64,000 nt of DNA from Oscillospiraceae bacterium. GTDB lineage: Bacteria; Bacillota; Clostridia; Oscillospirales; Oscillospiraceae. The notes under the pieces are model-generated. The model saw only the letters and a list, made by a program, of their open reading frames with translations, made no database searches and was not told where the DNA came from. A program made the position numbers and the translations under genes. Shown here piece after piece: positions 14,593-27,602 of this stretch. The number at the start of each line of letters is the position of its first letter. Within the stretch, counting starts at the first letter, position 1. Where the stretch lies: the NCBI GenBank assembly GCA_022804995.1, contig JAAWUC010000002.1, positions 464 through 64,463 of the forward strand. Direction: 5' to 3'.

Positions 14593-14622
14593 TTGACTTG
14601 CGGGTTTGTGATGTGCTATGAT
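14593..14622 (+). promoter_or_regulatory. candidate promoter of the LacI-family regulator gene
   Basis: TTGACT (14593-14598), 18 nt spacer, TGC-TATGAT (extended -10, 14617-14622). Confidence 0.5.
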
Positions 14623-14657: not shown

Positions 14658-15671
14658 ATGGCGATTACAGCAAAAGAATTGGCAAAGGAGCTGGGGGTTT
14701 CCCCCGCCGCAGTTTCAATCGCGCTCAACGGACGAACCGGAATCAGCGAGAAGAAGCGGCAAATAATTCTGGAGGCGGCTGAGAGCGCTGGGCTGCGCCG
14801 GGACAGCCGGAAAACACCCGTCTCCCCGGTGATCCATCTGGTGATCTTCAAGAAGCACGGTATGGTCTATGGAGATACGCCGTTTTTTTCCGCGCTGCTG
14901 GAGGGCGTGAGCGCCCAAGTGTCAGAGTCTGGCTGCCGGCTGCAGGTGTCCTATTTCTACGCGGCACAGGATGATAAAGAGCAGCTCCAGGGGATCGCCT
15001 CCTCCGACTGCGCCGGAATTCTGTTGCTGGCCACGGAAATGGAGTACGAGGATCTGTGCTGTTTCATGGCGCTGAAGCTCCCGGTGGTGATACTGGACAG
15101 TTTTTTTGAGAACGCACCCTTTGACAGCGTGGTGATCAACAATGTCCAGGGCGCGGTGCAAGCGGTGGAGTATCTGCTGGCCTGCGGGCATCGCCATCTG
15201 GGCCATATTCGGTCCAGCGTGGAGATCAGTAATTTCTACGAGCGCCATATTGGCTGTCTAAAAGGCGTCAAAGACTGTGTGGAAGGAGGGCGCTGTACAT
15301 TAGATACCATTTTTACCGGATCAACCCACGAGACGGCTTACCGCGATATGAACCGATACTTGGAGGAGAATCCGGTTCTGCCCACCGCGTTTTTCGCCGA
15401 TAACGATATTATTGCCGGCGGCTGTATGCGGGCTCTCCGGGAGCACGGCTACAATATTCCGGAAGACGTCTCCATAGTGGGATTTGACGATGTTCCAACG
15501 GCCAACGTGGGTTTTCCGGGACTGACGACTGTCAATGTTCCAAAGGAATATTTGGGAAAGTTTGCGGTGCAGAAGCTCCTGGAGCGGATAAGGAGTAAGG
15601 AGCCAACTCCCACAACAAAAACCTGCGTCAATACGGCACTGGTGATCCGGGATACCGTGAAGCGGCTGTAG
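14658..15671 (+). CDS. LacI-family transcriptional regulator
   Basis: N-terminal HTH ITAKELAKELGVSPAAVSIALNG followed by a periplasmic-binding-protein-like sugar-binding core. Confidence 0.9.
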   Translation: MAITAKELAKELGVSPAAVSIALNGRTGISEKKRQIILEAAESAGLRRDSRKTPVSPVIHLVIFKKHGMVYGDTPFFSALLEGVSAQVSESGCRLQVSYFYAAQDDKEQLQGIASSDCAGILLLATEMEYEDLCCFMALKLPVVILDSFFENAPFDSVVINNVQGAVQAVEYLLACGHRHLGHIRSSVEISNFYERHIGCLKGVKDCVEGGRCTLDTIFTGSTHETAYRDMNRYLEENPVLPTAFFADNDIIAGGCMRALREHGYNIPEDVSIVGFDDVPTANVGFPGLTTVNVPKEYLGKFAVQKLLERIRSKEPTPTTKTCVNTALVIRDTVKRL

Positions 15672-15703
15672 CAGCGCGGCGGATACCAGGCAGAAACTTT
15701 TAT

Positions 15704-15733
15704 GGGAAAGCCAGCAGGCTTTCCCGATTTTTT
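15704..15733 (+). terminator. intrinsic terminator after the LacI gene
   Basis: GGGAAAGCC-AGCA-GGCTTTCCC followed by GATTTTTTAT. Confidence 0.7.
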
Positions 15734-15872
15734 ATCTCTAAAGCTAAATAGTGTATAAATTATTTAGTTCTTAACTGCCGTTGAAAACCACAAACCGCAG
15801 CAAGGTATTTAGATAATATAGCTAAAAACACCATTCAAGTCCTGTACAAAACGCTGTTTTTGTAAAAATTGC

Positions 15873-15901
15873 TTGACAGTTTCAAAAATATACGCTATTC
15901 T
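15873..15901 (+). promoter_or_regulatory. candidate promoter of the sugar-utilisation operon
   Basis: TTGACA (15873-15878), 17 nt spacer, TATTCT (15896-15901). The inverted repeat TACAAAA-N6-TTTTGTA at 15845-15864, just upstream, is a candidate LacI-type operator. Confidence 0.45.
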
Positions 15902-16007
15902 TTAGAAAAATAACACGAATTGTTTATTTTATAATTTAGTTACAACAGATATAATCGGAACTCTTGGATTCCGTTTATATAAAAACATACGAAGAAGGAG
16001 CAGAAAA

Positions 16008-17135
16008 ATGAAAAAGAAGTTTTTAGCACTCTTACTCACCTTCACAATGGTCCTGGGCCTGGCGGCCTGCGGCGGCGGAAGCGGCGGACAGACGCCCAAC
16101 GGCGACACGCAATCCGGCGGCGGCCAGCAGCAGACCGACGCCCAGCAGCCCAGCGGCGGCGAGACGGCCGGCTCCGCCGGCAAGATCGCGGTCATCCGCA
16201 ACATGGAGAATTCCGACCACACAGCTCAGTTCTTCCAGGGCTGTATTGATGAGGGCGAGGCCCTGGGCTACACGGTCGATACCTTTATGTCCAACCAGGA
16301 CGACGTAGTAATGCAGGATCTGATGGAGCAGGCCCTGTCCAAGGACTACGACATCTGGATTGTCTCCCATGCCAATGAGGGCTATCAGTACGAGGTGATT
16401 TCCAAGGCTGTGGAGAAGGGCATCAAGGTCGTAGGCTTCGACTGCGGCGGCGAGCATGTTCCCGGCGTTACATACACCTCCCAGAACGATATTGCCCTCT
16501 CCCAGCTGTCCCTGGACGCTATGATTGAGGGCGTAGAAGCCGCCGGTGGCCAGCAGCCTGTGAAGTTTGCTGAAATCAATATTCTTGGACTCATCGTTCC
16601 CTTTGATACCCGCCACGGTGTCATCGAGGAGTACATGGCCGGCGGCAAGCTGGACTGCGTGGAGATCATCTCCCCCAACCTGGGCGGCGACACCTACAGC
16701 CAGATCTACACCGCCACCACGACCGTGCTCAACAAGAACGAGGGCAAGATCGGCCTGTGGGCCGCCAGCTCCGGCTTCCTGGACGGCGCGGTGGACGCCA
16801 TCAACGATGCCGGCCGTCAGGACGACGTAACCATCACCGCGGTGGATATCTCCAATACCGAGCTGGCCCGCATGGTCAGCGCCCCCAACTACTACGCCTG
16901 TGCCGCTGTTGACCCCTATGTTATCGGCATGGTGGATGTGCGCCTGGCGGTGCTGAAGGTGCTGGGCGTGGAGACCCCGGAGACCTACGCCCTGGAGCCT
17001 GTGAATATCTACGGCAGTCAGATCACCGACAGCGACGACATGTCCAACCTGGACCAGAAGTTTGATGATTTCGGCTCCACGGAGGCGTTCAACACTGACG
17101 AGATCGAGGCGGAGCGGGATAAGTACGCCAAGTAG
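16008..17135 (+). CDS. sugar ABC transporter substrate-binding lipoprotein (RbsB-like PBP type I)
   Basis: Signal peptide plus lipobox LGLAACGGGS, a Gly/Gln-rich linker, then a PBP fold. It is the first gene after the promoter. Confidence 0.85.
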   Translation: MKKKFLALLLTFTMVLGLAACGGGSGGQTPNGDTQSGGGQQQTDAQQPSGGETAGSAGKIAVIRNMENSDHTAQFFQGCIDEGEALGYTVDTFMSNQDDVVMQDLMEQALSKDYDIWIVSHANEGYQYEVISKAVEKGIKVVGFDCGGEHVPGVTYTSQNDIALSQLSLDAMIEGVEAAGGQQPVKFAEINILGLIVPFDTRHGVIEEYMAGGKLDCVEIISPNLGGDTYSQIYTATTTVLNKNEGKIGLWAASSGFLDGAVDAINDAGRQDDVTITAVDISNTELARMVSAPNYYACAAVDPYVIGMVDVRLAVLKVLGVETPETYALEPVNIYGSQITDSDDMSNLDQKFDDFGSTEAFNTDEIEAERDKYAK

Positions 17136-17216
17136 CCGGCCCAGCAGATCGGCTCGCCGCGCGGATGCAATTCTCCGCGCGGCGGCCCCCAAAACAACAA
17201 GAAAAGGCGGTGTGCA

Positions 17217-18743
17217 ATGACAGAAACGACAAAAATCGAAATGCGGGACATCTGCGTGGAGTTCCCCGGCGTCAAGGCGCTCCAGGACGTGGACTTCACC
17301 ATTGAGAGCGGCCACGTAACGGCTCTGGTGGGGGCCAACGGCGCGGGCAAGTCCACGCTGATGAAGGTCCTCTCCGGCGTCTATTCCCACTACACAGGGC
17401 AGATCCGGGTCAACGGTCAGGATGTGGAGCTCCGCAACCCCAACGCCGCGAAGGATCTGGGGGTGGAGACGGTCTACCAGGAGGTGGACACAGCCCTGGT
17501 TTCCACGCTGACTGTGGCGGAAAACATTATGATGGACTATCTGGTCCGCGGCATCGGCAAAAAACAGTTTATTAACAGGAAGCATATCCGGCAGACCTCC
17601 CAGGAGATTTTGAAGCAGCTGGGAATTGAGATCCCCATCAACCAGATCATCGCCAAGCTGAGCATGGCCCAGAAGCAGATGGTAGTTATCGCCCGGGCGG
17701 TGCTGCGCAGGTGCAAATTCCTCATTCTGGACGAGCCCACGGCCCCTCTGAGCAGCGCGGAGACAGAAAAGCTTTTTGAAATTGTCCGCAAACTCCAGAG
17801 CGAGGGCGTCGGCGTCATCTTCATCTCCCATCGGCTCAATGAGCTCTTTGAGATCTGCGAAACCATGACGGTCCTCCGGGACGGCCGGATTATCGAAGCC
17901 AACAAGCCCCTGACCAAGGACCTCACCACCAACGCCATTGTGGAACTGATGCTGGGCCGTGCCTTCAACGAGGCCTTGGACCGCAGCGGTCGGACCATTG
18001 GCGAGGTGATTCTCCGGGCCGACGGGCTCACCGAGAAAACAGGGTTGGTGCAGGATATCCGCATGGAGGTCCGCGCCGGTGAAATCGTAGGCATCTCCGG
18101 CCTAGTGGGCGCCGGGAAGACCGAGCTCTGCAAAACGCTGTACGGGGCTATGGGCGAAGCGAACGGAACCCTGGAGATCAACGGCAGGCCCGTGAAGCTC
18201 AAGTCCCCCCTCCAGGCGGTGAAGGCCGGTCTGGCCCTGATCCCGGAGGAGCGGCGCAAGGAGGGCATTATCATTGGGGAATCGGTGGCCAATAACCTGT
18301 CCATGGCCACCATCGACAAGTATACCCGGCTCTTTTCCTTCGTGGACCGGAAGCAGGAGGTCGAAGCCGCCAAAAAGAAGATCGCAGACGTGAAGATCAA
18401 GACGCCCACACCTTATCAGAGCATCGAGTACCTGTCCGGCGGCAACCAGCAGAAGGTGACCATCGGCAAATGGCTGGACTCCGACGCCAGCGTGTACATT
18501 TTTGATGAACCCACCAAGGGCATCGACGTGGGCGCAAAGCAGGACGTCTACAAATTGATCATAGAGCTGGCCAGAAACGGAAAGGCCGTCATCTACTCAA
18601 GCAGTGAGCAGAGCGAGATATTACAGCTGACGGACCGGGTCTATGTGATGTACGGCGGCAAAATTCAAAAAGAATTTAAAACCGCCGACGTGACAGAGGA
18701 ACAGCTGCTGCTGTATTCAACAGGAGGGGAGCTTGTCAAATGA
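17217..18743 (+). CDS. sugar ABC transporter ATP-binding protein (duplicated ABC cassette, RbsA/MglA-like)
   Basis: Two Walker A motifs (GANGAGKST, GLVGAGKTEL), signature motifs (LSMAQKQ, LSGGNQQK) and Walker B motifs (ILDEPT, IFDEPT). Confidence 0.9.
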   Translation: MTETTKIEMRDICVEFPGVKALQDVDFTIESGHVTALVGANGAGKSTLMKVLSGVYSHYTGQIRVNGQDVELRNPNAAKDLGVETVYQEVDTALVSTLTVAENIMMDYLVRGIGKKQFINRKHIRQTSQEILKQLGIEIPINQIIAKLSMAQKQMVVIARAVLRRCKFLILDEPTAPLSSAETEKLFEIVRKLQSEGVGVIFISHRLNELFEICETMTVLRDGRIIEANKPLTKDLTTNAIVELMLGRAFNEALDRSGRTIGEVILRADGLTEKTGLVQDIRMEVRAGEIVGISGLVGAGKTELCKTLYGAMGEANGTLEINGRPVKLKSPLQAVKAGLALIPEERRKEGIIIGESVANNLSMATIDKYTRLFSFVDRKQEVEAAKKKIADVKIKTPTPYQSIEYLSGGNQQKVTIGKWLDSDASVYIFDEPTKGIDVGAKQDVYKLIIELARNGKAVIYSSSEQSEILQLTDRVYVMYGGKIQKEFKTADVTEEQLLLYSTGGELVK

Positions 18744-19732
18744 ATCAACTGTTATCGAAAACCAACCGCAGGAAATTGTCCCATTTCCTGTCCGCCTGGG
18801 GCGCGGTTATCTCCATGATTGTGGCCTTCGTCATCTTTTCCATTCTTCAGCCCTCATTTTTCTTCACCTTAAATAATGTAGAGAATATCCTGCGGGCGGC
18901 GTCCATCACGGTAGTTATCGCCATGGGCACCACCTTCGCCTTCTCCTGCAATGTGTTCGACCTCTCTGTGGGGGCTCTGGCCACTCTGGGCGCGGCCTTT
19001 TCCCTGACGTTTATGGTCTGGTACGGCATCCCCTTGCCGCTGGCCATTCTGCTGACGGTGGTCTGCTGCATGGCCTTCGGCGCCATCAACGCCATTCTGG
19101 TGCTCAAATTCAAGATCCCCGCGATTCTGACCACTCTGGCCATGCAGTTCATCATGTCCGGCCTGGCCTTGACCTACTCGGGCGGCAGTGTCATCAACCC
19201 AAACCGCCCCGGCGCCAACGGCCAAGAGATCGTCATGGAAGTGCCGGAGCTGTTCTGGAAGCTAGGCAAGGCGCCCTGGATTTATATTATCATGCTGGCC
19301 TCCGTGGCAGTGGTGGCCATTTTTCAAAACTACACCAAGCACGGCCGCTATCTGTACATGGTGGGCGCGAATCCCGAGGCGGCCAAGCTGGCCGGTATCA
19401 ATGTCACCGCCTACCGGACCCTCGCCTTCGTGGTCACAGGCGTTTTCGCTGCGCTGGGCGGTGTTCTGATTGTGGCCCGGGCCGGTACTGTGGCGGCCAA
19501 CGCCGGCGGATCCTACCTGATGCCCGCTATGGCGGCTGTCAACATCGGTATTGCCGTGGCCGGCGTGGGCAAGCCCAACGCCATCGGCACCCTCATTGGC
19601 GCGCTGCTCATCCAGGTGGTGGAAAACGGCCTGTTTATGCTGAGCGTGCCCTACTATTCTATTGATATTGCCAAGGGCCTGATTCTGATTCTGGCGCTGC
19701 TGCTGAGCAACTTGGGCGCCGAGGACAAGTAA
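18740..19732 (+). CDS. sugar ABC transporter permease (RbsC-like)
   Basis: 4 nt overlap with the ATPase gene. Polytopic membrane protein with about 9-10 TM helices. Confidence 0.9.
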   Translation: MNQLLSKTNRRKLSHFLSAWGAVISMIVAFVIFSILQPSFFFTLNNVENILRAASITVVIAMGTTFAFSCNVFDLSVGALATLGAAFSLTFMVWYGIPLPLAILLTVVCCMAFGAINAILVLKFKIPAILTTLAMQFIMSGLALTYSGGSVINPNRPGANGQEIVMEVPELFWKLGKAPWIYIIMLASVAVVAIFQNYTKHGRYLYMVGANPEAAKLAGINVTAYRTLAFVVTGVFAALGGVLIVARAGTVAANAGGSYLMPAMAAVNIGIAVAGVGKPNAIGTLIGALLIQVVENGLFMLSVPYYSIDIAKGLILILALLLSNLGAEDK

Positions 19733-19769
19733 CCTGGGCCCAATAGACGAAAAACAGAGGTGTGATCGT

Positions 19770-21179
19770 ATGAAAAATAAATTTGGAATTATCGTCTCCA
19801 CCCGGAGCTTTTTCCCCTCCCACCTGGTCAAGACCGCCCGGGAGGACATTGCCAGAGTAATGGCGGAGATGGGCTATGAGTATGTCATGGTGGGCGAGAA
19901 CGACACCAGGCACGGCGCGGTGCTCACCTTCGACGAGGCCAAGGTCTGCGCGGAGCTGTTCAAGAAGCACCGGGAGGAGATTGGCGGCATCGTGGTTGTG
20001 ATGCCCAACTTCTGCGAAGAATTGGGGATCACCGAGGCCATTGAGCTGGCCGGCCTGAACGTGCCAGTTCTCATCCAGGCCTGCGACGACGACTTCAACA
20101 AGCTGGATATGGCCAACCGCCGGGACGCCTTCTGCGGGAAAATCTCCCTGTGCAACAACCTCTACCAGCGGAATATCCCCTATACCCTGACCCAGCTCCA
20201 CACCTGCCCCATTGATTCCACGGAGTTCCGGGCCGATCTGAAGCGGTTTGCCGGCGTGTGCGCGGTGGTCAACGGCCTGAAAGGGGCCCGGATCGCTATG
20301 CTGGGGGCCCGGCCCATCGCCTTCAACACCGTCCGCTTTTCGGAGAAGATCCTCCAGAAACACGGCGTATCTGTCCAGACGGTGGACTTCTCCGAGCTGA
20401 TCTTCAACGCCATGAACTACAAGGACGAGAAGAAGGTAGCGGAGAAGATCGCGGAGATCCGCGCCTACGGCAGTGTGCCGGAGTGGATCTCCCCCGAGGT
20501 CATGGAGAAACAGGCCAAGCTGTGTCTGGCCATCAGCGAGAAAGTGGACGAGCTTCAGTGCGGCGCTTCCACCGTCCAGTGCTGGGACAGCGTAGAGAAC
20601 AACTACGGCTGCGCCACCTGTCTGGCCATGAGCATGATGGGTGAGAGCGGCAAGCCTTCCGCCTGCGAGAGCGACGTCACCGGTGCGCTGTCCATGCTGG
20701 CGGCCCATCTGGCCTCCGGCGGAGCCACGGCCCTGATGGACTGGAACAACAACCTGCGGGAGGACCGGAACGCCTGCATCTCTCTCCACTGCTCCAACTT
20801 CCCCAAGAGCTTTTTCGCCAGCGACGTGGAGATCGAGTGCCTGGACGTGCTGGGCTCCACCCTGGGCAAGGCCAACTGCTTCGGCGCCTGCAAGGGGCAG
20901 GTAGCCGCCGGCGACATGACCTTCCTGCGCTTCACCACTGACGACCAGCGGGGCGTCCTGAAGGCATATGTGGGCGAGGGCGAGTTCCGCGCCGAGGCGC
21001 TGCCCACCAAGGGCGGCCTGGCCAACTGCTATATTGAGAATCTCCAGGGACTGATGCGCTATATCTGCGAGAACGGCTACGAGCACCATGTGTGTTTTGT
21101 CCGGGGACACGTGGCGGATATCCTGGAGGAGGCCTTGACCAAGTACATGGGCGTCCAAGTCTACCGCCACAGGGGGTAA
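19770..21179 (+). CDS. L-fucose/L-arabinose isomerase family protein (short, ~470 aa form)
   Basis: MKNKFGIIVSTRSFFPSHL...VVVMPNFCEE...RRDAFCGKISLCNNL is typical of COG2407-type fucose-isomerase-like proteins. Confidence 0.8.
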   Translation: MKNKFGIIVSTRSFFPSHLVKTAREDIARVMAEMGYEYVMVGENDTRHGAVLTFDEAKVCAELFKKHREEIGGIVVVMPNFCEELGITEAIELAGLNVPVLIQACDDDFNKLDMANRRDAFCGKISLCNNLYQRNIPYTLTQLHTCPIDSTEFRADLKRFAGVCAVVNGLKGARIAMLGARPIAFNTVRFSEKILQKHGVSVQTVDFSELIFNAMNYKDEKKVAEKIAEIRAYGSVPEWISPEVMEKQAKLCLAISEKVDELQCGASTVQCWDSVENNYGCATCLAMSMMGESGKPSACESDVTGALSMLAAHLASGGATALMDWNNNLREDRNACISLHCSNFPKSFFASDVEIECLDVLGSTLGKANCFGACKGQVAAGDMTFLRFTTDDQRGVLKAYVGEGEFRAEALPTKGGLANCYIENLQGLMRYICENGYEHHVCFVRGHVADILEEALTKYMGVQVYRHRG

Positions 21180-21184
21180 GAGCT

Positions 21185-21625
21185 ATGCTGAGAGGAATTC
21201 CCCCCGAGCTGTCTCCCCAGCTGCTAGAGACTCTGGCCGAGATGGGCCACGGCGACACCATCACTATCGGCGACGCCTACTTCGCCGCCGCCTCCATGGC
21301 CAAAAACAGCCGGCTTCTCCGGGCGGACGGTATGTCCGCACAGAGGATGGCGGACGCCATCCTCCAGCTGATGCCCCTGGACAACATGGCTGCATCCTCT
21401 GTAACCGTCATGGGCATTGAGGATGGGAAGGGCGGTCTGGCGCTGCTGGATATGTCTGAGAAGCTGCTGGAAACCGTCCGCCGCCACGATGAGAAAGCGG
21501 CAGAGACCAGCGAGATTGTGGACCGCCTCACCTTCTACGAGCGAGCCGAGCAGTCCTTCGCAGTTCTCGCTACCGGGGAGCCTGAGCACTACGGCTGTAT
21601 CATTTTACAGAAGGGCGTCCGGTGA
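21185..21625 (+). CDS. fucU: RbsD/FucU family mutarotase (L-fucose mutarotase-like)
   Basis: Start moved to the ATG at 21185. MLRGIPPELSPQLLETLAEMGHGDTITIGDAYF...RLTFYERAEQSFAVLATGE..YGCIILQKGV aligns along its whole length with E. coli FucU as I recall it. Confidence 0.85.
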   Translation: MLRGIPPELSPQLLETLAEMGHGDTITIGDAYFAAASMAKNSRLLRADGMSAQRMADAILQLMPLDNMAASSVTVMGIEDGKGGLALLDMSEKLLETVRRHDEKAAETSEIVDRLTFYERAEQSFAVLATGEPEHYGCIILQKGVR

Positions 21626-21650
21626 GGGCCCCTTCTTGAAGGAGGAAACC

Positions 21651-22484
21651 ATGAATCCTGATTTGAAGATCAAGGCATATGATCTGCGCAAAAACATTCT
21701 GGATATTGTCATAGCCGGAAGGTGCGGGCATATCGGCGGCGACATGAGCGTGCTGGAGGTTCTGATGACCCTGTACGACCGGATGAATGTGTCCCCGGAC
21801 CGCCTGGAGGACCCGGACCGGGACCGTTTTGTCCTCAGCAAGGGCCACTGTGTGGAAGCGCTCTACGCAGTTCTGGCGGAGAAGGGGTTCCTGTCCCTGC
21901 CGGATATCCTAGAGCGATACTCCAAATTTGGATCCCCCTACATCGGCCACCCCAACAACAAGCTCCCCGGCATTGAGATGAACTCCGGCTCCCTGGGCCA
22001 CGGCCTGGGGGTATCGGTGGGCATGGCCCTGGCCGGGAAGATGGACGGCAGGCCCTACCGCGTCTATACCGCTATGGGCGACGGCGAGCTGGCGGAGGGC
22101 TCCGTCTGGGAGGCCGCGATGGCCGCGTCCCACTTCCACCTGGACAATCTGTGCGCGGTGGTGGACCGGAACCGCCTCCAAATCTCCGGCCCCACAGAAG
22201 AGGTAATGGCCCATGAGGATCTGGCCGCCCGGTTTGCCAGCTTTGGCTGGCATGTCATCCGTGTCTCAGACGGCAATGATGTGGAGCAGCTGAATGCCGC
22301 CTTCGACGAGGCGGAGACCGTCAAGGAAAAGCCCACAGTGATTATCGCTAACACGGTGAAGGGCTGTGGATCCGCCGTGATGGAGGACAAGGCCGCCTGG
22401 CACCACAAGGTGCCGACACAGGAGGAGTACGATCAGATCGTCCAAGATTTTGCCGCCAGAAAGGAGGCCCTGCGCTGTGAATAA
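21651..22484 (+). CDS. transketolase, N-terminal (ThDP pyrophosphate-binding) subunit
   Basis: Start at 21651 with RBS GAAGGAGGA. Motifs GHIGGDMSVLEVL, SKGH, GSLGHGLG and GDGELAEGSVWEA. Confidence 0.9.
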   Translation: MNPDLKIKAYDLRKNILDIVIAGRCGHIGGDMSVLEVLMTLYDRMNVSPDRLEDPDRDRFVLSKGHCVEALYAVLAEKGFLSLPDILERYSKFGSPYIGHPNNKLPGIEMNSGSLGHGLGVSVGMALAGKMDGRPYRVYTAMGDGELAEGSVWEAAMAASHFHLDNLCAVVDRNRLQISGPTEEVMAHEDLAARFASFGWHVIRVSDGNDVEQLNAAFDEAETVKEKPTVIIANTVKGCGSAVMEDKAAWHHKVPTQEEYDQIVQDFAARKEALRCE

Positions 22485-23412
22485 GATCGCAAACCGCGCT
22501 GTAATGTGCGAGGTCCTGATGGAGCGGGCCAAGCGGGACCCGGACCTGGTGGTCCTGTGCAGCGACTCCCGGGGCAGCGCCTCTCTAGCTCCCTTCGCTC
22601 AGGCGTACCCCAAGCAGTTTGTGGAGGTGGGCATCGCGGAGCAGGATCTGGTGAGCATCGCCGCCGGCCTGGCCGTCTGCGGGAAGAAAGCCTACGCCGT
22701 CTCCCCTGCCAGCTTCCTGTCCACCCGAAGCTATGAGCAGGCCAAGGTGGACTGCGCATACTCCCGCGCCAATGTGAAGCTCATCGGTATTTCCGGCGGC
22801 GTCAGCTACGGGGCTTTGGGCATGACCCATCACTCCGCCCAGGATATCGCCGCTATGGCGGCTATCCCCGGGATGCGGGTCTACCTGCCCAGCGACCGCC
22901 GCCAGACAAAGCGGCTCTTTGAGAGCCTTCTGGAGGATTCACAGACCGCCTATGTCCGCCTGGGCCGCAACCCGGTGGAGGATCTCTACGAGGAGGGAAG
23001 CGTCCCCTTCGAGATGGACCGGGCCGTATGGGTCCGGCGGGGGAGGGACGTAGCCATCATTGCCTGCGGCGAGATGGTCAAGCCTGCGGTGGACGCCGCG
23101 GACGCTCTGACCAAGGAGGGTATCTCCGCAGCGGTCCTGGATATGTACTGCGTCAAGCCTTTGGATACCCAGGCGGTGCTGGAGGCGGCACAGAGCTCCA
23201 AGCTGGTGGTCACTGTGGAGGAGCACGCCCCCTGGGGCGGTCTGGGCCCCATGGTCGACCGGGTCGTCTCCGAGAACTGTCCTAGGCGGGTAATCAATCT
23301 TGCTCTGCCGGATGAACCAGTGATTACAGGCGAGTCCAAAGAGGTCTTCGCTCATTACGGCCTGGACGCCACCGGTATTTCCAAGACCGTGGCGGATGCG
23401 CTCCGGGGGTGA
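22477..23412 (+). CDS. transketolase, C-terminal (pyrimidine-binding) subunit
   Basis: The GTG at 22477 lies 9 nt after AAGGAGG and overlaps the upstream stop. Motif FVEVGIAEQDLVSIAAGLA. Confidence 0.9.
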   Translation: MNKIANRAVMCEVLMERAKRDPDLVVLCSDSRGSASLAPFAQAYPKQFVEVGIAEQDLVSIAAGLAVCGKKAYAVSPASFLSTRSYEQAKVDCAYSRANVKLIGISGGVSYGALGMTHHSAQDIAAMAAIPGMRVYLPSDRRQTKRLFESLLEDSQTAYVRLGRNPVEDLYEEGSVPFEMDRAVWVRRGRDVAIIACGEMVKPAVDAADALTKEGISAAVLDMYCVKPLDTQAVLEAAQSSKLVVTVEEHAPWGGLGPMVDRVVSENCPRRVINLALPDEPVITGESKEVFAHYGLDATGISKTVADALRG

Positions 23413-23416
23413 AGGG

Positions 23417-24904
23417 GTGGCTGCGTATATTCTCTCCGTGGATCAGAGCACCCAGGGCACCAAGGCGCTGATCTTCGACCAGAAGGGCGCCATTCTGGCG
23501 CGGGCGGACGTGCCCCACCGGCAGATCATCGACAGTGCCGGCTGGGTGGAGCACGATCTGGAGGAGATTCTGCAAAATACTATTGAGGCGTCCAGACAGG
23601 CAGCGGCCAAGGCCGGCGTAGACCCGGCGGATATCGCCTGCATGGGCATCAGCAACCAGCGGGAAACCTGCGCCGCCTGGGACCGGGAAACCGGAGCCCC
23701 GGTTCACAACGCCATCGTCTGGCAGTGCGGCCGGGCAAAGGACATCTGCGGAGAGCTGGAGCGGGCCGGCTGGGGCCCGGCGGTAAAAGAGCGCACCGGG
23801 ATCAATCTCTCCCCCTACTTCTCCGCCTCCAAGCTGGCGTGGCTTCTGCGGAATGTGCGGGAGGCGCCGGAGCTGTCCCGGACAGGAAAGCTTTGCTGCG
23901 GGACCATTGACAGCTGGCTGGTATTCCGCCTGACCCGGGAGCGGACCTTCAAGACGGACTACTCCAACGCCTCCCGGACCCAGCTTTTCAATCTCCAGAG
24001 ACTGAAGTGGGATGAGGAGATCTGCGGTGCGTTCGGCATCAATCCGGCCTGCCTGCCGGAGGTCTGCTTCTCCGACAGCTGCTTTGGCTCAACGGATTTG
24101 GGCGGTTTCCTGCCCAGGCCGGTTCCCATCCACGGCGTTCTGGGGGACTCCCACGCGGCCCTCTTCGGCCAGGGCTGCCACCGGCCGGGAATGGTAAAGG
24201 CTACTTATGGGACCGGCTCCTCGGTGATGATGAACATCGGGAAAAAACCGATCCTGACCAAATCCCTGGCAACCTCTATCGCCTGGGGGATGGGGAATAC
24301 AGTGGAATACGTGGCGGAGGGCAATATTAACTACGCCGGAGCAATCGTCACCTGGCTGAAGGACGATATGGGCCTGATCAGCTCCTCGAAGGAGGTCGGG
24401 AAACTGGCCGCTGAGGCCAACCCGGAGGACACCACTTGTCTGGTTCCCGCCTTCAGTGGCCTGGGAGCCCCCTACTGGAGCGGAAATGCCAAGGCCATGA
24501 TCTGTGGAATGACCCGGCTGACCGGGAAGCGGGAGCTGGCCAAAGCGGCGGAGGAGGCTATCGCCATGCAGGTGGCGGATATCCTCCAGCTGATGGAGGA
24601 GGCCGGTATTCATGTGGACGTCCTCAAGGCGGACGGCGGGGCCACGCGGGACGCCTACCTCATGCAGCTCCAAAGTGACATACTGGGAAAGCCGGTAGAT
24701 ATCTCTGACGCGGAGGAGCTCTCCGCCATCGGCGCGGCCTACTGCGCCGGAATTGCGGCGGGGGTTCTCTCTAAGAAAGATCTGTTTCCGGTGCGGAGCG
24801 CACTGTCCTATGCCCCAAAGATGGACGATATTGCACGGCAGAAAAAGTGCAGTCTATGGAAGGAAGCAGTCCGGCTGACACTGCATCAGGCAGAGCAGAA
24901 ATAA
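23417..24904 (+). CDS. FGGY-family carbohydrate kinase (glycerol-kinase-like)
   Basis: The GTG at 23417 gives the N-terminus VAAYILSVDQSTQGTKA. Motifs NQRETCAAWD, GTGSSVMMN and ADGGATRD. Confidence 0.85.
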   Translation: MAAYILSVDQSTQGTKALIFDQKGAILARADVPHRQIIDSAGWVEHDLEEILQNTIEASRQAAAKAGVDPADIACMGISNQRETCAAWDRETGAPVHNAIVWQCGRAKDICGELERAGWGPAVKERTGINLSPYFSASKLAWLLRNVREAPELSRTGKLCCGTIDSWLVFRLTRERTFKTDYSNASRTQLFNLQRLKWDEEICGAFGINPACLPEVCFSDSCFGSTDLGGFLPRPVPIHGVLGDSHAALFGQGCHRPGMVKATYGTGSSVMMNIGKKPILTKSLATSIAWGMGNTVEYVAEGNINYAGAIVTWLKDDMGLISSSKEVGKLAAEANPEDTTCLVPAFSGLGAPYWSGNAKAMICGMTRLTGKRELAKAAEEAIAMQVADILQLMEEAGIHVDVLKADGGATRDAYLMQLQSDILGKPVDISDAEELSAIGAAYCAGIAAGVLSKKDLFPVRSALSYAPKMDDIARQKKCSLWKEAVRLTLHQAEQK

Positions 24905-25297: not shown

Positions 25298-25374
25298 TGG
25301 TGGACGCTAACGGACTTGAACCGCTGACCCCCTGCACGTCAAGCAGGTGCTCTAGCCAGCTGAGCTAAGCGTCC
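25298..25374 (-). tRNA. tRNA-Val (anticodon GAC), CCA encoded
   Basis: Folded by hand from GGACGCTTAGCTCAGCTGGCTAGAGCACCTGCTTGACGTGCAGGGGGTCAGCGGTTCAAGTCCGTTAGCGTCCACCA. Acceptor stem GGACGCT/AGCGTCC, D arm GCTC/GAGC, anticodon stem CCTGC/GCAGG with loop TTGACGT, T arm AGCGG/CCGTT with a TTCAAGT loop. Confidence 0.95.
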
Positions 25375-25391
25375 ATATGCGGAACATTGAT

Positions 25392-25420
25392 ATGATACCT
25401 CATTCAAGCGGATTTGTCAA
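25392..25420 (-). promoter_or_regulatory. sigma-A promoter of tRNA-Val
   Basis: Minus strand TTGACA (25420-25415), 17 nt spacer, TATCAT (25397-25392), about 17 nt upstream of the tRNA 5' end. Confidence 0.65.
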
Positions 25421-25460
25421 CAGCTTTTCGGGAAATTTCTCAAGAAAATTTCAAAGCAAC

Positions 25461-25488
25461 AGCGGGCCGGCTTCCCAGCCGGCCCGCT
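25461..25488 (-). terminator. terminator after jag
   Basis: 12 bp perfect stem AGCGGGCCGGCT-N4-AGCCGGCCCGCT directly downstream of the jag stop, with T-rich sequence following on the minus strand. Confidence 0.7.
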
Positions 25489-25505
25489 TCTTCCTCCCAG
25501 GCATC

Positions 25506-26441
25506 CTACGCCTGCTCCTGATTCCGCTTTTCCCGGTCGTAGGCCACAATCACCCGCCGGTTGGGGTCCGTCCCCATGGAGTAGGTGGTGATGTTTTCCA
25601 CATTTTGCAAAGCGGTGTGGATTACATGGCGCTCGTAGGCGTTCATGGGCTCCAGCGGCACGCTTCTCTTGTAGCGGATCACCTTCCCCGCTACCTTCAG
25701 CGCCAGCTTCTGGAGGCTCTGTTCCCGCTTGAGGCGGTAGTTCTCCGCGTCCACATGGATCCGCACCCGCTTGTCCGCGCCCCGGTTGACGGCGTAGTTG
25801 GCCAGCTGCTGGATGGCGTCCAGGGTCTCCCCTCTCCGCCCGATGAGCTGCCCCATCTTCTCCCCCTCCAGAAAGACCTTGTACCGGCCCTTCTCCGGCT
25901 GATAGATGTTGATAACGGCAGTGCTGTTCATATGCTCCAGCAGTCCGGTCAGGAACGTCCGGATCTGTACCGCCTTCTCGTCATTGTCCCCGCAGGGCTC
26001 TCCCAAATCCACCGGCGGCGGCAGCGGAACATCCTCCGTCCGCTCCTCATCTCTCCGCTGCTCCGGCCTGGGACGGTTCTCCCCCGCCCTCCGGCGGCGG
26101 CGCTCCGGCCGCTCGGAGCGCTCCCGTCTCTCCGGCACAGGGGCGGAAGCCGCAGGGGCCTCCTCCCGAATCTCCCGAACCTCCGGAGCGGGCCGCTTCT
26201 CCGGCGCGCCTCTGCTGGGCTGAGCTGCCGGCGCACTCACCTCCCGCACCGGCTCCGGATCCTCCAGGCCGTAGGTCACCCGGACCTTGGCAGGACTGGC
26301 GCCGATGCCGAACAGGCCCTTCTTCGCTCTCTCCAAAATCTCAACGGACACATCATCCCGGTCGAGGCCCAGCTCCGCCAGCGCCTTGCTGACAGCCTCC
26401 TCCTCGGTCTTGCCCGTCATGTCAAGATACTTCATTGCCAT
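25506..26441 (-). CDS. jag: Jag/KhpB RNA-binding protein (Jag_N, KH, R3H) with expanded R/E/P-rich linker
   Basis: N-terminus MKYLDMTGKTEEEAVSKALAELG, C-terminal R3H LEPMNAYERHVIHTAL. It lies downstream of yidC. Confidence 0.85.
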   Translation of the reverse strand: MAMKYLDMTGKTEEEAVSKALAELGLDRDDVSVEILERAKKGLFGIGASPAKVRVTYGLEDPEPVREVSAPAAQPSRGAPEKRPAPEVREIREEAPAASAPVPERRERSERPERRRRRAGENRPRPEQRRDEERTEDVPLPPPVDLGEPCGDNDEKAVQIRTFLTGLLEHMNSTAVINIYQPEKGRYKVFLEGEKMGQLIGRRGETLDAIQQLANYAVNRGADKRVRIHVDAENYRLKREQSLQKLALKVAGKVIRYKRSVPLEPMNAYERHVIHTALQNVENITTYSMGTDPNRRVIVAYDREKRNQEQA

Positions 26442-26450
26442 ATCGGGTAT

Positions 26451-27560
26451 TTACTCCTCCGTATCATATCGGTCTGCCCTGTAGCTGCGGCCCCGGGCAT
26501 AGGGGCGGTTGTCCACCCGGCCCGCCTCGGTGGTGGAGGGGCCGCTCTGCTTGGGCTGCTGGACCCTTCTGGGCTTTTTGGACTCTGTCTCCCGCTGCTC
26601 CTGGGCCTTTTTCTTGGCCTCCTCCATGCGCAGCTTCCGCGCGGCCTCCCGCTTGGCGGCCCGCTCCTCCTCCTCGGCGTTGATCTTCTTGGTGTAGAAC
26701 CTGCCAAGCAGGTACTCGCGGATCATGAGCCACAGGCTGTTGGCAATCCAGTACAGGCCCAGTCCGGCGGGCATAACGAAGCAGAACCAGATGCTCATCA
26801 GGGGCATCATGATGTTTATCATCTTCATGCTGGCCTGCTGCTCCTGGCTCTGACCGTTGGATCTGCTGATCACGATGGTCTGCACATAGTTGAGGGCCGC
26901 TGCCAGCACGGGGATCAGAATCAGCCCAATCATCGCCCACTCCGGGGCAAAATTCTTGATTGCCGCCTGGGGCTGAAGGCTCAGATCGACCCCCAGGAAA
27001 TCGAATTGCATATGGAGCAGCTTGCTGCCCACGCCCTCGATGCCGGACCAGTCGTACCTGTCCCAGTTCTGGGAAATAAAGTTGGCCAGATCGATCTGCT
27101 CATAGGCGCCGAAGGCCCCGTTGGACATAGTCTCCGCCGCGTAGCCCAGCCCCTCCGCGGCCTTCCGCAGGGCGTCGCAGGCGGCCTCGCTGATACCCAT
27201 GAAATAGACGATAGGCTGTCGAATGATGGAGTACAGGGGAACGAGGATAAACATAGGCACCAGGGACCACAGGCACCCGCCCATGGGGTTGATGCCCTCC
27301 TCCTGATAGAGCTTTGCCAGTTCCTCCTGATATTTCTGCTGGTTGTTGGCGTACTGCTTCTGCAGCTCCGCCTGCTTGCTGGACATCATGCCCATGCGGA
27401 TCATGCTGCGCTTGGACTTCATCTGGAGAGGCACCATGATCAGGGTGACAACCAGACTGAACAGGATGATAGACGCGCCGTAGGACCCGGTGACGGCGTA
27501 CAATCCCCGCAGCACCGCCGCGAAGGGCAGGCTGACGATTTTGCCAAAGGCACCAAACAT
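26451..27560 (-). CDS. yidC: membrane protein insertase YidC with basic C-terminal tail
   Basis: The polytopic core has the PAGLGLYW motif. The Lys/Arg/Glu-rich C-terminus resembles the ribosome-binding tails of Gram-positive YidC2. Confidence 0.9.
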   Translation of the reverse strand: MFGAFGKIVSLPFAAVLRGLYAVTGSYGASIILFSLVVTLIMVPLQMKSKRSMIRMGMMSSKQAELQKQYANNQQKYQEELAKLYQEEGINPMGGCLWSLVPMFILVPLYSIIRQPIVYFMGISEAACDALRKAAEGLGYAAETMSNGAFGAYEQIDLANFISQNWDRYDWSGIEGVGSKLLHMQFDFLGVDLSLQPQAAIKNFAPEWAMIGLILIPVLAAALNYVQTIVISRSNGQSQEQQASMKMINIMMPLMSIWFCFVMPAGLGLYWIANSLWLMIREYLLGRFYTKKINAEEEERAAKREAARKLRMEEAKKKAQEQRETESKKPRRVQQPKQSGPSTTEAGRVDNRPYARGRSYRADRYDTEE

Positions 27561-27602
27561 TGACGTTTTTCCTCCGATTGAAAAGTCGATGGACGTCCGG
27601 CC

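Follow-up and report, generated by a model that had tools for sequence, protein, structure and literature searches.

Organization of the Locus

The DNA analyzed here, referred to as the window, is a stretch of 64,000 nucleotides from an Oscillospiraceae bacterium (assembly GCA_022804995.1, contig JAAWUC010000002.1, positions 464 to 64,463), whose 2.4 Mb genome is spread over 165 contigs and is 89% complete. Between positions 14658 and 24904 the window holds nine genes, all on the + strand, for a regulator, a sugar importer, and a set of enzymes that includes a split transketolase, and the open reading frame (ORF) listing, Pfam, and NCBIfam bear out the nine-gene operon that a first-pass annotation had placed here. 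That annotation termed the locus fucose-type and its substrate not deducible, citing the D-apiose route only as an analogy. The comparisons below point instead to a divergent form of the D-apiose transketolase pathway, which is already known, and not to a new fucose-type route. We consider it likely that the operon provides for LacI-controlled uptake of D-apiose and for its catabolism by the published isomerase-kinase-transketolase route, where the sugar used, the site at which it is phosphorylated, and the parts played by the FucU-like and LacI proteins are what we infer from comparative sequence data.

The locus is headed by a gene for a LacI-family repressor (14658-15671; Pfam LacI and Peripla_BP_3), which has a promoter-like consensus match of its own (14593-14622) and a terminator-like hairpin on its 3′ side (15703-15726). 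The next three genes encode a lipoprotein solute-binding protein of a CUT2-type ATP-binding cassette (ABC) system (16008-17135; Pfam Peripla_BP_4, lipobox LAAC), a double-cassette sugar ABC ATPase (17217-18743; two ABC_tran stretches in Pfam), which resembles AraG, XylG, and RbsA and scores under their NCBIfam cut-offs, and an RbsC-like ABC permease (18740-19732; BPD_transp_2), whose gene overlaps that of the ATPase by 4 nucleotides. A promoter-like site, TTTATA-16-TATAAT (15928-15980, + strand; a consensus match only), lies 5′ of the binding-protein gene, and the inverted repeat that overlaps this site (15949-15980) is a candidate operator. Downstream of the importer lie genes for an aldose-ketose isomerase, predicted to convert D-apiose to apulose (19770-21179), an RbsD/FucU-family protein of 146 amino acids (21185-21625), the transketolase subunits TktN (21651-22484) and TktC (22477-23412), and an FGGY kinase that is GlpK-derived, AplK-like, and predicted to act on apulose (23396-24904). 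Start codons were refined by in-frame starts, upstream purine-rich motifs, and homologue alignments. Because the intergenic gaps and overlaps are short, the arrangement fits a single operon behind a separately terminated lacI, with LacI probably serving as the operon's regulator.

The Published D-Apiose Route

Rhamnogalacturonan-II and plant apiosides have apiose as a characteristic sugar. In 2018, Carter et al. (Nat Chem Biol 14:696) reportedly described a non-oxidative transketolase pathway for D-apiose that employs ApsI, AplK, and AptA/AptB. The published route proceeds from D-apiose to apulose, then to apulose-4-phosphate, and finally to xylulose-5-phosphate and dihydroxyacetone phosphate (MetaCyc PWY-8089), and a preprint (10.1101/2025.09.14.675865) cites Carter et al. 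where it names gut Bacteroides and Clostridia as degraders of apiose. In Escherichia coli SE15, a member of ST131, the genes aplK, aptA, and aptB have been named, strains positive for the cluster grow on D-apiose, and two oxidoreductases stand in for apsI (PMC13001218). Related clusters on Klebsiella pINF102.2 and on a Rahnella plasmid carry the order aptA-aptB-PF02952 isomerase-FGGY kinase, with Klebsiella proteins that are 70% (AplK), 79% (AptA), and 77% (AptB) identical to those of E. coli.

The window resembles these systems in that the same four catalytic gene families, hereafter the cassette, are clustered together with a CUT2 ABC importer, and in that its isomerase comes from the family that the clusters of Klebsiella, Rahnella, and Sodalis also carry. 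It differs in having a LacI regulator where the others have one of the SorC or DeoR type, a binding protein of another subfamily with no DUF2291 gene, an extra RbsD/FucU-like gene, and a Bacillota host; E. coli-type apiose clusters, for their part, have two short-chain dehydrogenase/reductase (SDR) oxidoreductases where the window has an isomerase.

The Transketolase Belongs With AptAB and Has an Altered Active Site

TktN (Pfam Transketolase_N) is the N-terminal, thiamine diphosphate-binding subunit and is 44% identical to AptA of E. coli SE15, while TktC (Pfam Transket_pyr and Transketolase_C), the C-terminal, pyrimidine-binding subunit, shows 36% identity to AptB of E. coli and 39% to that of Klebsiella. 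In a tree of concatenated TktN and TktC sequences, all 43 cassette pairs split from the 27 remaining transketolases, which come from relatives of the window's organism, with 100% support in the Shimodaira-Hasegawa-like approximate likelihood ratio test (SH-aLRT). These 43 pairs span Bacillota, Bacteroidales, Monoglobus, Chondrinema, and three Enterobacterales AptAB enzymes (E. coli ST131, Klebsiella, and Rahnella), and the window pair is one of them.

The members of this clade share altered active-site motifs. In canonical transketolases, the motif (T/S)H(A/G)G..VGEDGxxHQ holds His461, Asp469, and His473 of E. coli TktA, a numbering that was checked on the E. coli sequence. In the alignment, every cassette enzyme, together with AptB, has G(V/I/L)(S/N)(G/A)G..YG(A/P)L..(T/S)H(H/T/L) in its place. 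Window TktC reads GISGGVSYGALGMTHH in place of the canonical THAG..GEDGxTHQ, with Ser at the equivalent of His461, Leu at the equivalent of Asp469, and the equivalent of His473 kept. In the N-terminal subunits of the cassettes, WHG is changed to WHH and GGSLS to GGD(M/L)S or GADLS, and window TktN carries the clade motifs GH(I/T)GGD(M/L)S and WHH. The cofactor motifs GDGE and Asn are intact in the window enzyme. According to mutagenesis of yeast transketolase, Asp469 contacts the hydroxyl adjacent to the bond that is cleaved, and the histidine helps to bind phosphate. Since apulose-4-phosphate is without that hydroxyl and has a shorter phosphate arm, the loss of His461 and Asp469 would fit this substrate.

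The first-pass annotation had taken the transketolase to be dedicated to the pathway, and the rest of the genome is in keeping with this. Another contig (C128) carries a second split transketolase pair, away from any sugar cluster. A search of 26 relatives gave a match to it in every one, and in most congeners the identity is 80-97%. Because it is conserved across relatives in this way, the sequence comparison identifies the C128 pair as the housekeeping transketolase and the window pair as an extra copy; the possibility that the window pair is itself the housekeeping enzyme is thereby ruled out. Among the transketolases of the relatives, three further split enzymes (L157, L158, and L160, from genomes G004, G010, and G016) form a long-branched clade with a non-canonical GTDPGV..NGGTHMPFED at the His461/Asp469 region, and may be another substrate-specialized type.

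The Kinase Is Derived From GlpK

The kinase of the window scores 538 bits on NF000756 and 553 bits on TIGR01311, under the latter's cut-off of 590, which the true GlpK of the same genome, encoded on contig C64, passes with 739 bits. Its candidacy as the glycerol kinase of this genome was therefore dismissed. On the L-fuculokinase (FucK) model TIGR02628 it reaches 83 bits against a cut-off of 470.9, and the ribulokinase models of NCBIfam score below that. Its identity to AplK of E. coli SE15 is 39%, and like AplK it is GlpK-derived. In the kinase tree, it falls in a clade of 26 cassette kinases with 100% support, and by these sequence comparisons the cassette kinases are robust clades distinct from true GlpK. 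A different order of events, in which the transketolase would act on the unphosphorylated ketose and the kinase would take the C3 product, was considered and dropped once the kinship to AplK and AptAB emerged.

The Isomerase Has an AraA-Like Modeled Fold and Relatives in Apiose Clusters

In Pfam, the isomerase (469 amino acids) matches Fucose_iso_C (PF02952) alone. The N-terminal domains of FucI were not detected, no FucI model of NCBIfam matches, and a sequence search of the Protein Data Bank detected no solved structure. A look-up in the ESM Atlas returned nothing but generic names of the "L-fucose isomerase-like" kind. The AlphaFold model of the isomerase has a predicted local distance difference test score (pLDDT) of 93 and a predicted template modeling score (pTM) of 0.92. 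Over its whole length, this model superposes best on L-arabinose isomerases such as 4r1o and 2ajt, with template modeling (TM) scores of 0.82-0.84. With FucI structures, the TM score is 0.78 when normalized by the model and falls to 0.62-0.64 when the target is the reference, as FucI extends well beyond the model. The modeled fold is thus AraA-like, even though sequence identity to AraA is about 15%, no AraA Pfam domains were detected in the window isomerase, and the genomic context is another one.

These results bear on the possibility that the operon serves D-arabinose or L-fucose, an alternative also raised in the first-pass annotation for D-arabinose. Here, the isomerase would yield D-ribulose or L-fuculose, the kinase would phosphorylate the ketose, and the transketolase would boost flux through the pentose phosphate pathway. 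FucI also acts on D-arabinose, and the window has in common with the E. coli L-fucose pathway (FucI/FucK/FucA/FucU) the superfamily of its isomerase, an FGGY kinase, and a member of the RbsD/FucU family. However, the isomerase is AraA-like in architecture and without the FucI N-terminal domains, the kinase fits neither the FucK nor the ribulokinase models, and FucA is missing, with a dedicated transketolase in place of aldol cleavage. This transketolase is moreover without the His461 and Asp469 equivalents, and it is not a duplicate of the housekeeping enzyme. We regard this route as very improbable. The D-arabinose alternative is thus not supported and the fucose-type label does not hold; what remains of the FucI-family assignment is the Fucose_iso_C domain, as the N-terminal domains are missing and the fold is nearer to AraA. 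The underlying pathway logic of an isomerase, a kinase, and a dedicated transketolase with no aldolase did hold: no fucA-type aldolase lies nearby, there is no class II aldolase in the window, and the only PF00596 match of the genome is on contig C92. The protein on that contig (L007:3-3859, - strand) has 366 amino acids with two class II aldolase stretches and is encoded between an FGGY kinase and a class-III aminotransferase, an unusual trio and a context unrelated to the window.

The sole NCBIfam match of the isomerase is to the SftI model NF048012, and this raises a second possibility, a transketolase route for sulfoquinovose or a 6-deoxy-hexose of the sulfo-transketolase type. The sulfo-transketolase and sulfo-transaldolase pathways (SqwGH; SftI) likewise combine a sugar isomerase with a split transketolase. 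The match, though, amounts to 83.1 bits against a cut-off of 700, and the nine genes of the operon include no match to a sulfoquinovosidase, to a sulfoacetaldehyde reductase, or to a sulfonate exporter. The sulfo-transketolase route is not known to need an ATP-dependent kinase, whereas the window has one that is translationally coupled to the transketolase. Such a route is accordingly extremely improbable.

Sequence relationships within the isomerase family lead back to apiose clusters. Along its entire length, the window isomerase shares 41.6% identity with the PF02952 isomerase inside the Klebsiella and Rahnella aptA-aptB-isomerase-aplK clusters. In the isomerase tree it falls in a Bacillota clade of 33 members (100% support), whose sister is formed by cassettes of Bacteroidales and Oscillospirales, and it is 70-72% identical to, and nested among, the isomerases of cassettes linked to apiosidases (e.g., L031, L034, and L036). 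A further clade of the family, with 29 members mainly from Chloroflexota and Acidobacteriota, is 46-49% identical to the window isomerase and is without a nearby transketolase. Of 33 loci, 21 have a different FGGY kinase as a neighbor and 16 have a class II aldolase (L049-L093; e.g., aldolase L093:9187-9843, kinase L082:5696-7345), which looks like a sugar route of the isomerase-kinase-aldolase kind. A Planctomycetes member (L051:2965-6183) lies directly 3′ of a gene with a PF13204 apiosidase domain, with no transketolase within reach.

To place ApsI with respect to this family, Enterobacteriaceae clusters were surveyed in 401 genomes, 68 of which have an AplK orthologue. In the 37 of these 68 genomes that were examined, the AplK/AptAB clusters hold either a PF02952 isomerase or one or more SDR oxidoreductase genes, and no other isomerase type was found. 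We infer that the characterized ApsI belongs to the isomerase family of the window, because these clusters hold a PF02952 isomerase or SDRs, because the oxidoreductases of E. coli replace apsI, and because the cassettes of Clostridia and Bacteroides carry a PF02952 isomerase. Homologue searches with the Klebsiella isomerase and E. coli AplK, together with cluster look-ups, returned no Pectobacterium cluster among the matches listed; for Pectobacterium atrosepticum, a preprint (10.64898/2026.02.12.705490) gives UniProt Q6D5T8 as AplK. At least three layouts occur among the Enterobacteriaceae apiose clusters, with two adjacent SDRs (the E. coli type), with a DeoR regulator and SDRs flanking the transporter, or with a PF02952 isomerase (L011, L174, L175, L184, L209-L215, and L216-L229).

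Cassettes in Other Genomes and Their Link to Apiosidases

The surroundings of isomerase homologues were surveyed at 80 genome loci. The first lead was a Saccharofermentans-like genome (3.2 Mb), where LacI and TktN-TktC-FGGY-isomerase genes are followed by two PF13204 apiosidase-domain proteins. At 33 loci with an isomerase 62-80% identical to that of the window, the TktN-TktC-kinase-isomerase cassette is present wherever the flanks allow it to be seen, and an apiosidase-like gene lies within 10 kb at about 11 of these 33. PF13204 above its cut-off and DUF5060 were found in all nine genes that were checked, namely seven of the approximately 11, one beside the cassette of Monoglobus, and the one at L051. 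It is because of the AptAB tree and the active-site signature, the presence of the same four-gene cassette in Enterobacterales apiose clusters, and these PF13204 genes beside orthologous cassettes that D-apiose can be put forward as the substrate. Since no apiosidase gene was detected in the 89%-complete genome of the window, the sequence data suggest that this organism takes up free apiose released by others.

At four loci (L019:4674-6725, L020, L021, and L046), pairs of inosine-uridine nucleoside-hydrolase-like (IU_nuc_hydro) genes are found directly 5′ of the cassette. These may release sugar from a furanoside other than pectin fragments.

The Binding Protein and the FucU-Like Protein

Two components of the operon set it apart from the described apiose clusters. 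The first is the binding protein, whose closest solved chains are 5ulb (3.6e-39) and then 4ry8 (8e-14), and whose orthologues (43-65% identity) accompany the cassette at six loci (L024, L025, L027, L028, L029, and L081). The second is the FucU-like protein. Earlier described as a FucU-like mutarotase, it belongs to the RbsD_FucU family (113 bits in Pfam) and scores 97.8 bits on the L-fucose mutarotase (FucU) model, under the cut-off of 141. Orthologues lie after the isomerase at L024, L028, and L029, and are also found at L025 and L081. The order binding protein-ATPase-permease-isomerase-FucU-like is found again in Anaerofilum hominis, Acetanaerobacterium elongatum, Solobacterium, and two further Bacillota. 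We propose that the FucU-like protein could be a converter of ring forms or anomers of apiose.

The subgroup that combines this importer with a FucU-like gene (window, Anaerofilum hominis, Acetanaerobacterium elongatum, and Solobacterium) might hold two undescribed functions, namely a new family of binding proteins for apiose or another rare sugar and an enzyme of the RbsD/FucU family for the interconversion of a branched sugar's furanose forms; or else the sugar that it channels to AptAB-type cleavage might not be apiose. We put this forward as speculative and rather unlikely.

A Model for D-Apiose Catabolism and the Points Against It

Taken together, the components suggest the following route. 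The lipoprotein binding protein would capture free apiose for import through the ABC system, and the RbsD/FucU-like protein would probably speed the interconversion of the sugar's furanose forms. The AraA/FucI-fold isomerase would then convert apiose to the ketose apulose, and the GlpK-derived kinase would phosphorylate apulose to apulose-4-phosphate. Finally, the split thiamine diphosphate enzyme would transfer the C1-C2 glycolaldehyde unit to glyceraldehyde-3-phosphate, giving xylulose-5-phosphate and dihydroxyacetone phosphate, and the housekeeping transketolase encoded elsewhere in the genome would handle the rest.

Several observations weigh against assigning the operon to D-apiose. The window proteins are 36-44% identical to the validated Enterobacterales proteins, and the kinase, for which the evidence is weaker than for the transketolase, is as similar to E. 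coli GlpK (401 bits) as to AplK (360 bits), while the branch that unites all cassette kinases with the Enterobacterales AplK has only 75% support. The isomerase family appears to feed two downstream chemistries, and membership alone therefore does not fix the substrate; its probable link to ApsI comes from cluster content. The binding protein is 23% identical to that of the E. coli apiose cluster, and an apiosidase gene was not found in the window genome. The last two points also speak for a further alternative, in which the chemistry is the same and the importer and FucU subgroup takes up a related small or branched aldose, possibly derived from nucleoside-like or other furanosides. That the second-closest solved relative of the binding protein is 4ry8, that apiosidase neighbors are missing from all six loci with this binding protein, and that four other cassettes adjoin IU_nuc_hydro genes are all in its favor. 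Opposed to it are the nesting of the window isomerase among those of apiosidase-linked cassettes and the transketolase signature, which removes Asp469 and is common to all cassettes, and the missing hydrolase would fit cross-feeding on free apiose. We therefore hold that a sugar other than apiose is an improbable substrate, and that D-apiose remains the likely one.

Genomic Setting and Origin of the Operon

The operon is an accessory block with housekeeping genes on both sides. Upstream lie dnaX and a gene of the metallo-beta-lactamase fold. The downstream boundary is marked by a tRNA-Val(GAC) gene (25298-25374, - strand; ARAGORN), followed by jag (25506-26441) and yidC (26451-27560), both on the - strand. 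A + strand ORF at 25377-27563 (728 amino acids) shadows jag and yidC, has no family match, and was discarded as spurious.

A search of 60 relatives, of which 36 are congeners, turned up no isomerase with above 36% identity to that of the window. Two congeners (L165:9104-15010 in G012, and L166 in G002) have LacI and isomerase-TktN-TktC-kinase genes with a different isomerase type, which is about 26% identical to the isomerase of the window and 77% identical to that of Monoglobus pectinilyticus. The cassette of the latter species (L128:6995-13226) carries this second isomerase type (about 25% identical), followed by a PF13204 apiosidase-domain protein. Between the congener cassettes and the window, identity is 70-72% for the transketolase, 57% for the kinase, and 46-47% for LacI. 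The operon thus looks like a mosaic, in which a regulator, transketolase, and kinase of the genus type are combined with an importer-isomerase-FucU block from another lineage. It occupies a different chromosomal site from the congeners' cassettes, beside tRNA-Val, and no empty insertion site could be identified in congeners, where the jag neighborhoods of G007 and G003 are non-syntenic with the window.

Implications for Apiose Use by Gut Clostridia

The pathway itself was already known; what is new here is the FucU-like gene, the subfamily of the binding protein, and the transketolase signature as a marker for annotation. The current labels call both transketolase types "transketolase" and the kinase "glycerol kinase," and the signature, in which His461 and Asp469 are replaced and WHG is changed to WHH, provides a simple sequence test to tell transketolases of the apulose-4-phosphate type from housekeeping ones. 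As for the organism, it appears to be a scavenger of free apiose and not a primary degrader, and knowing which gut Clostridia use apiose helps to map cross-feeding on pectin.

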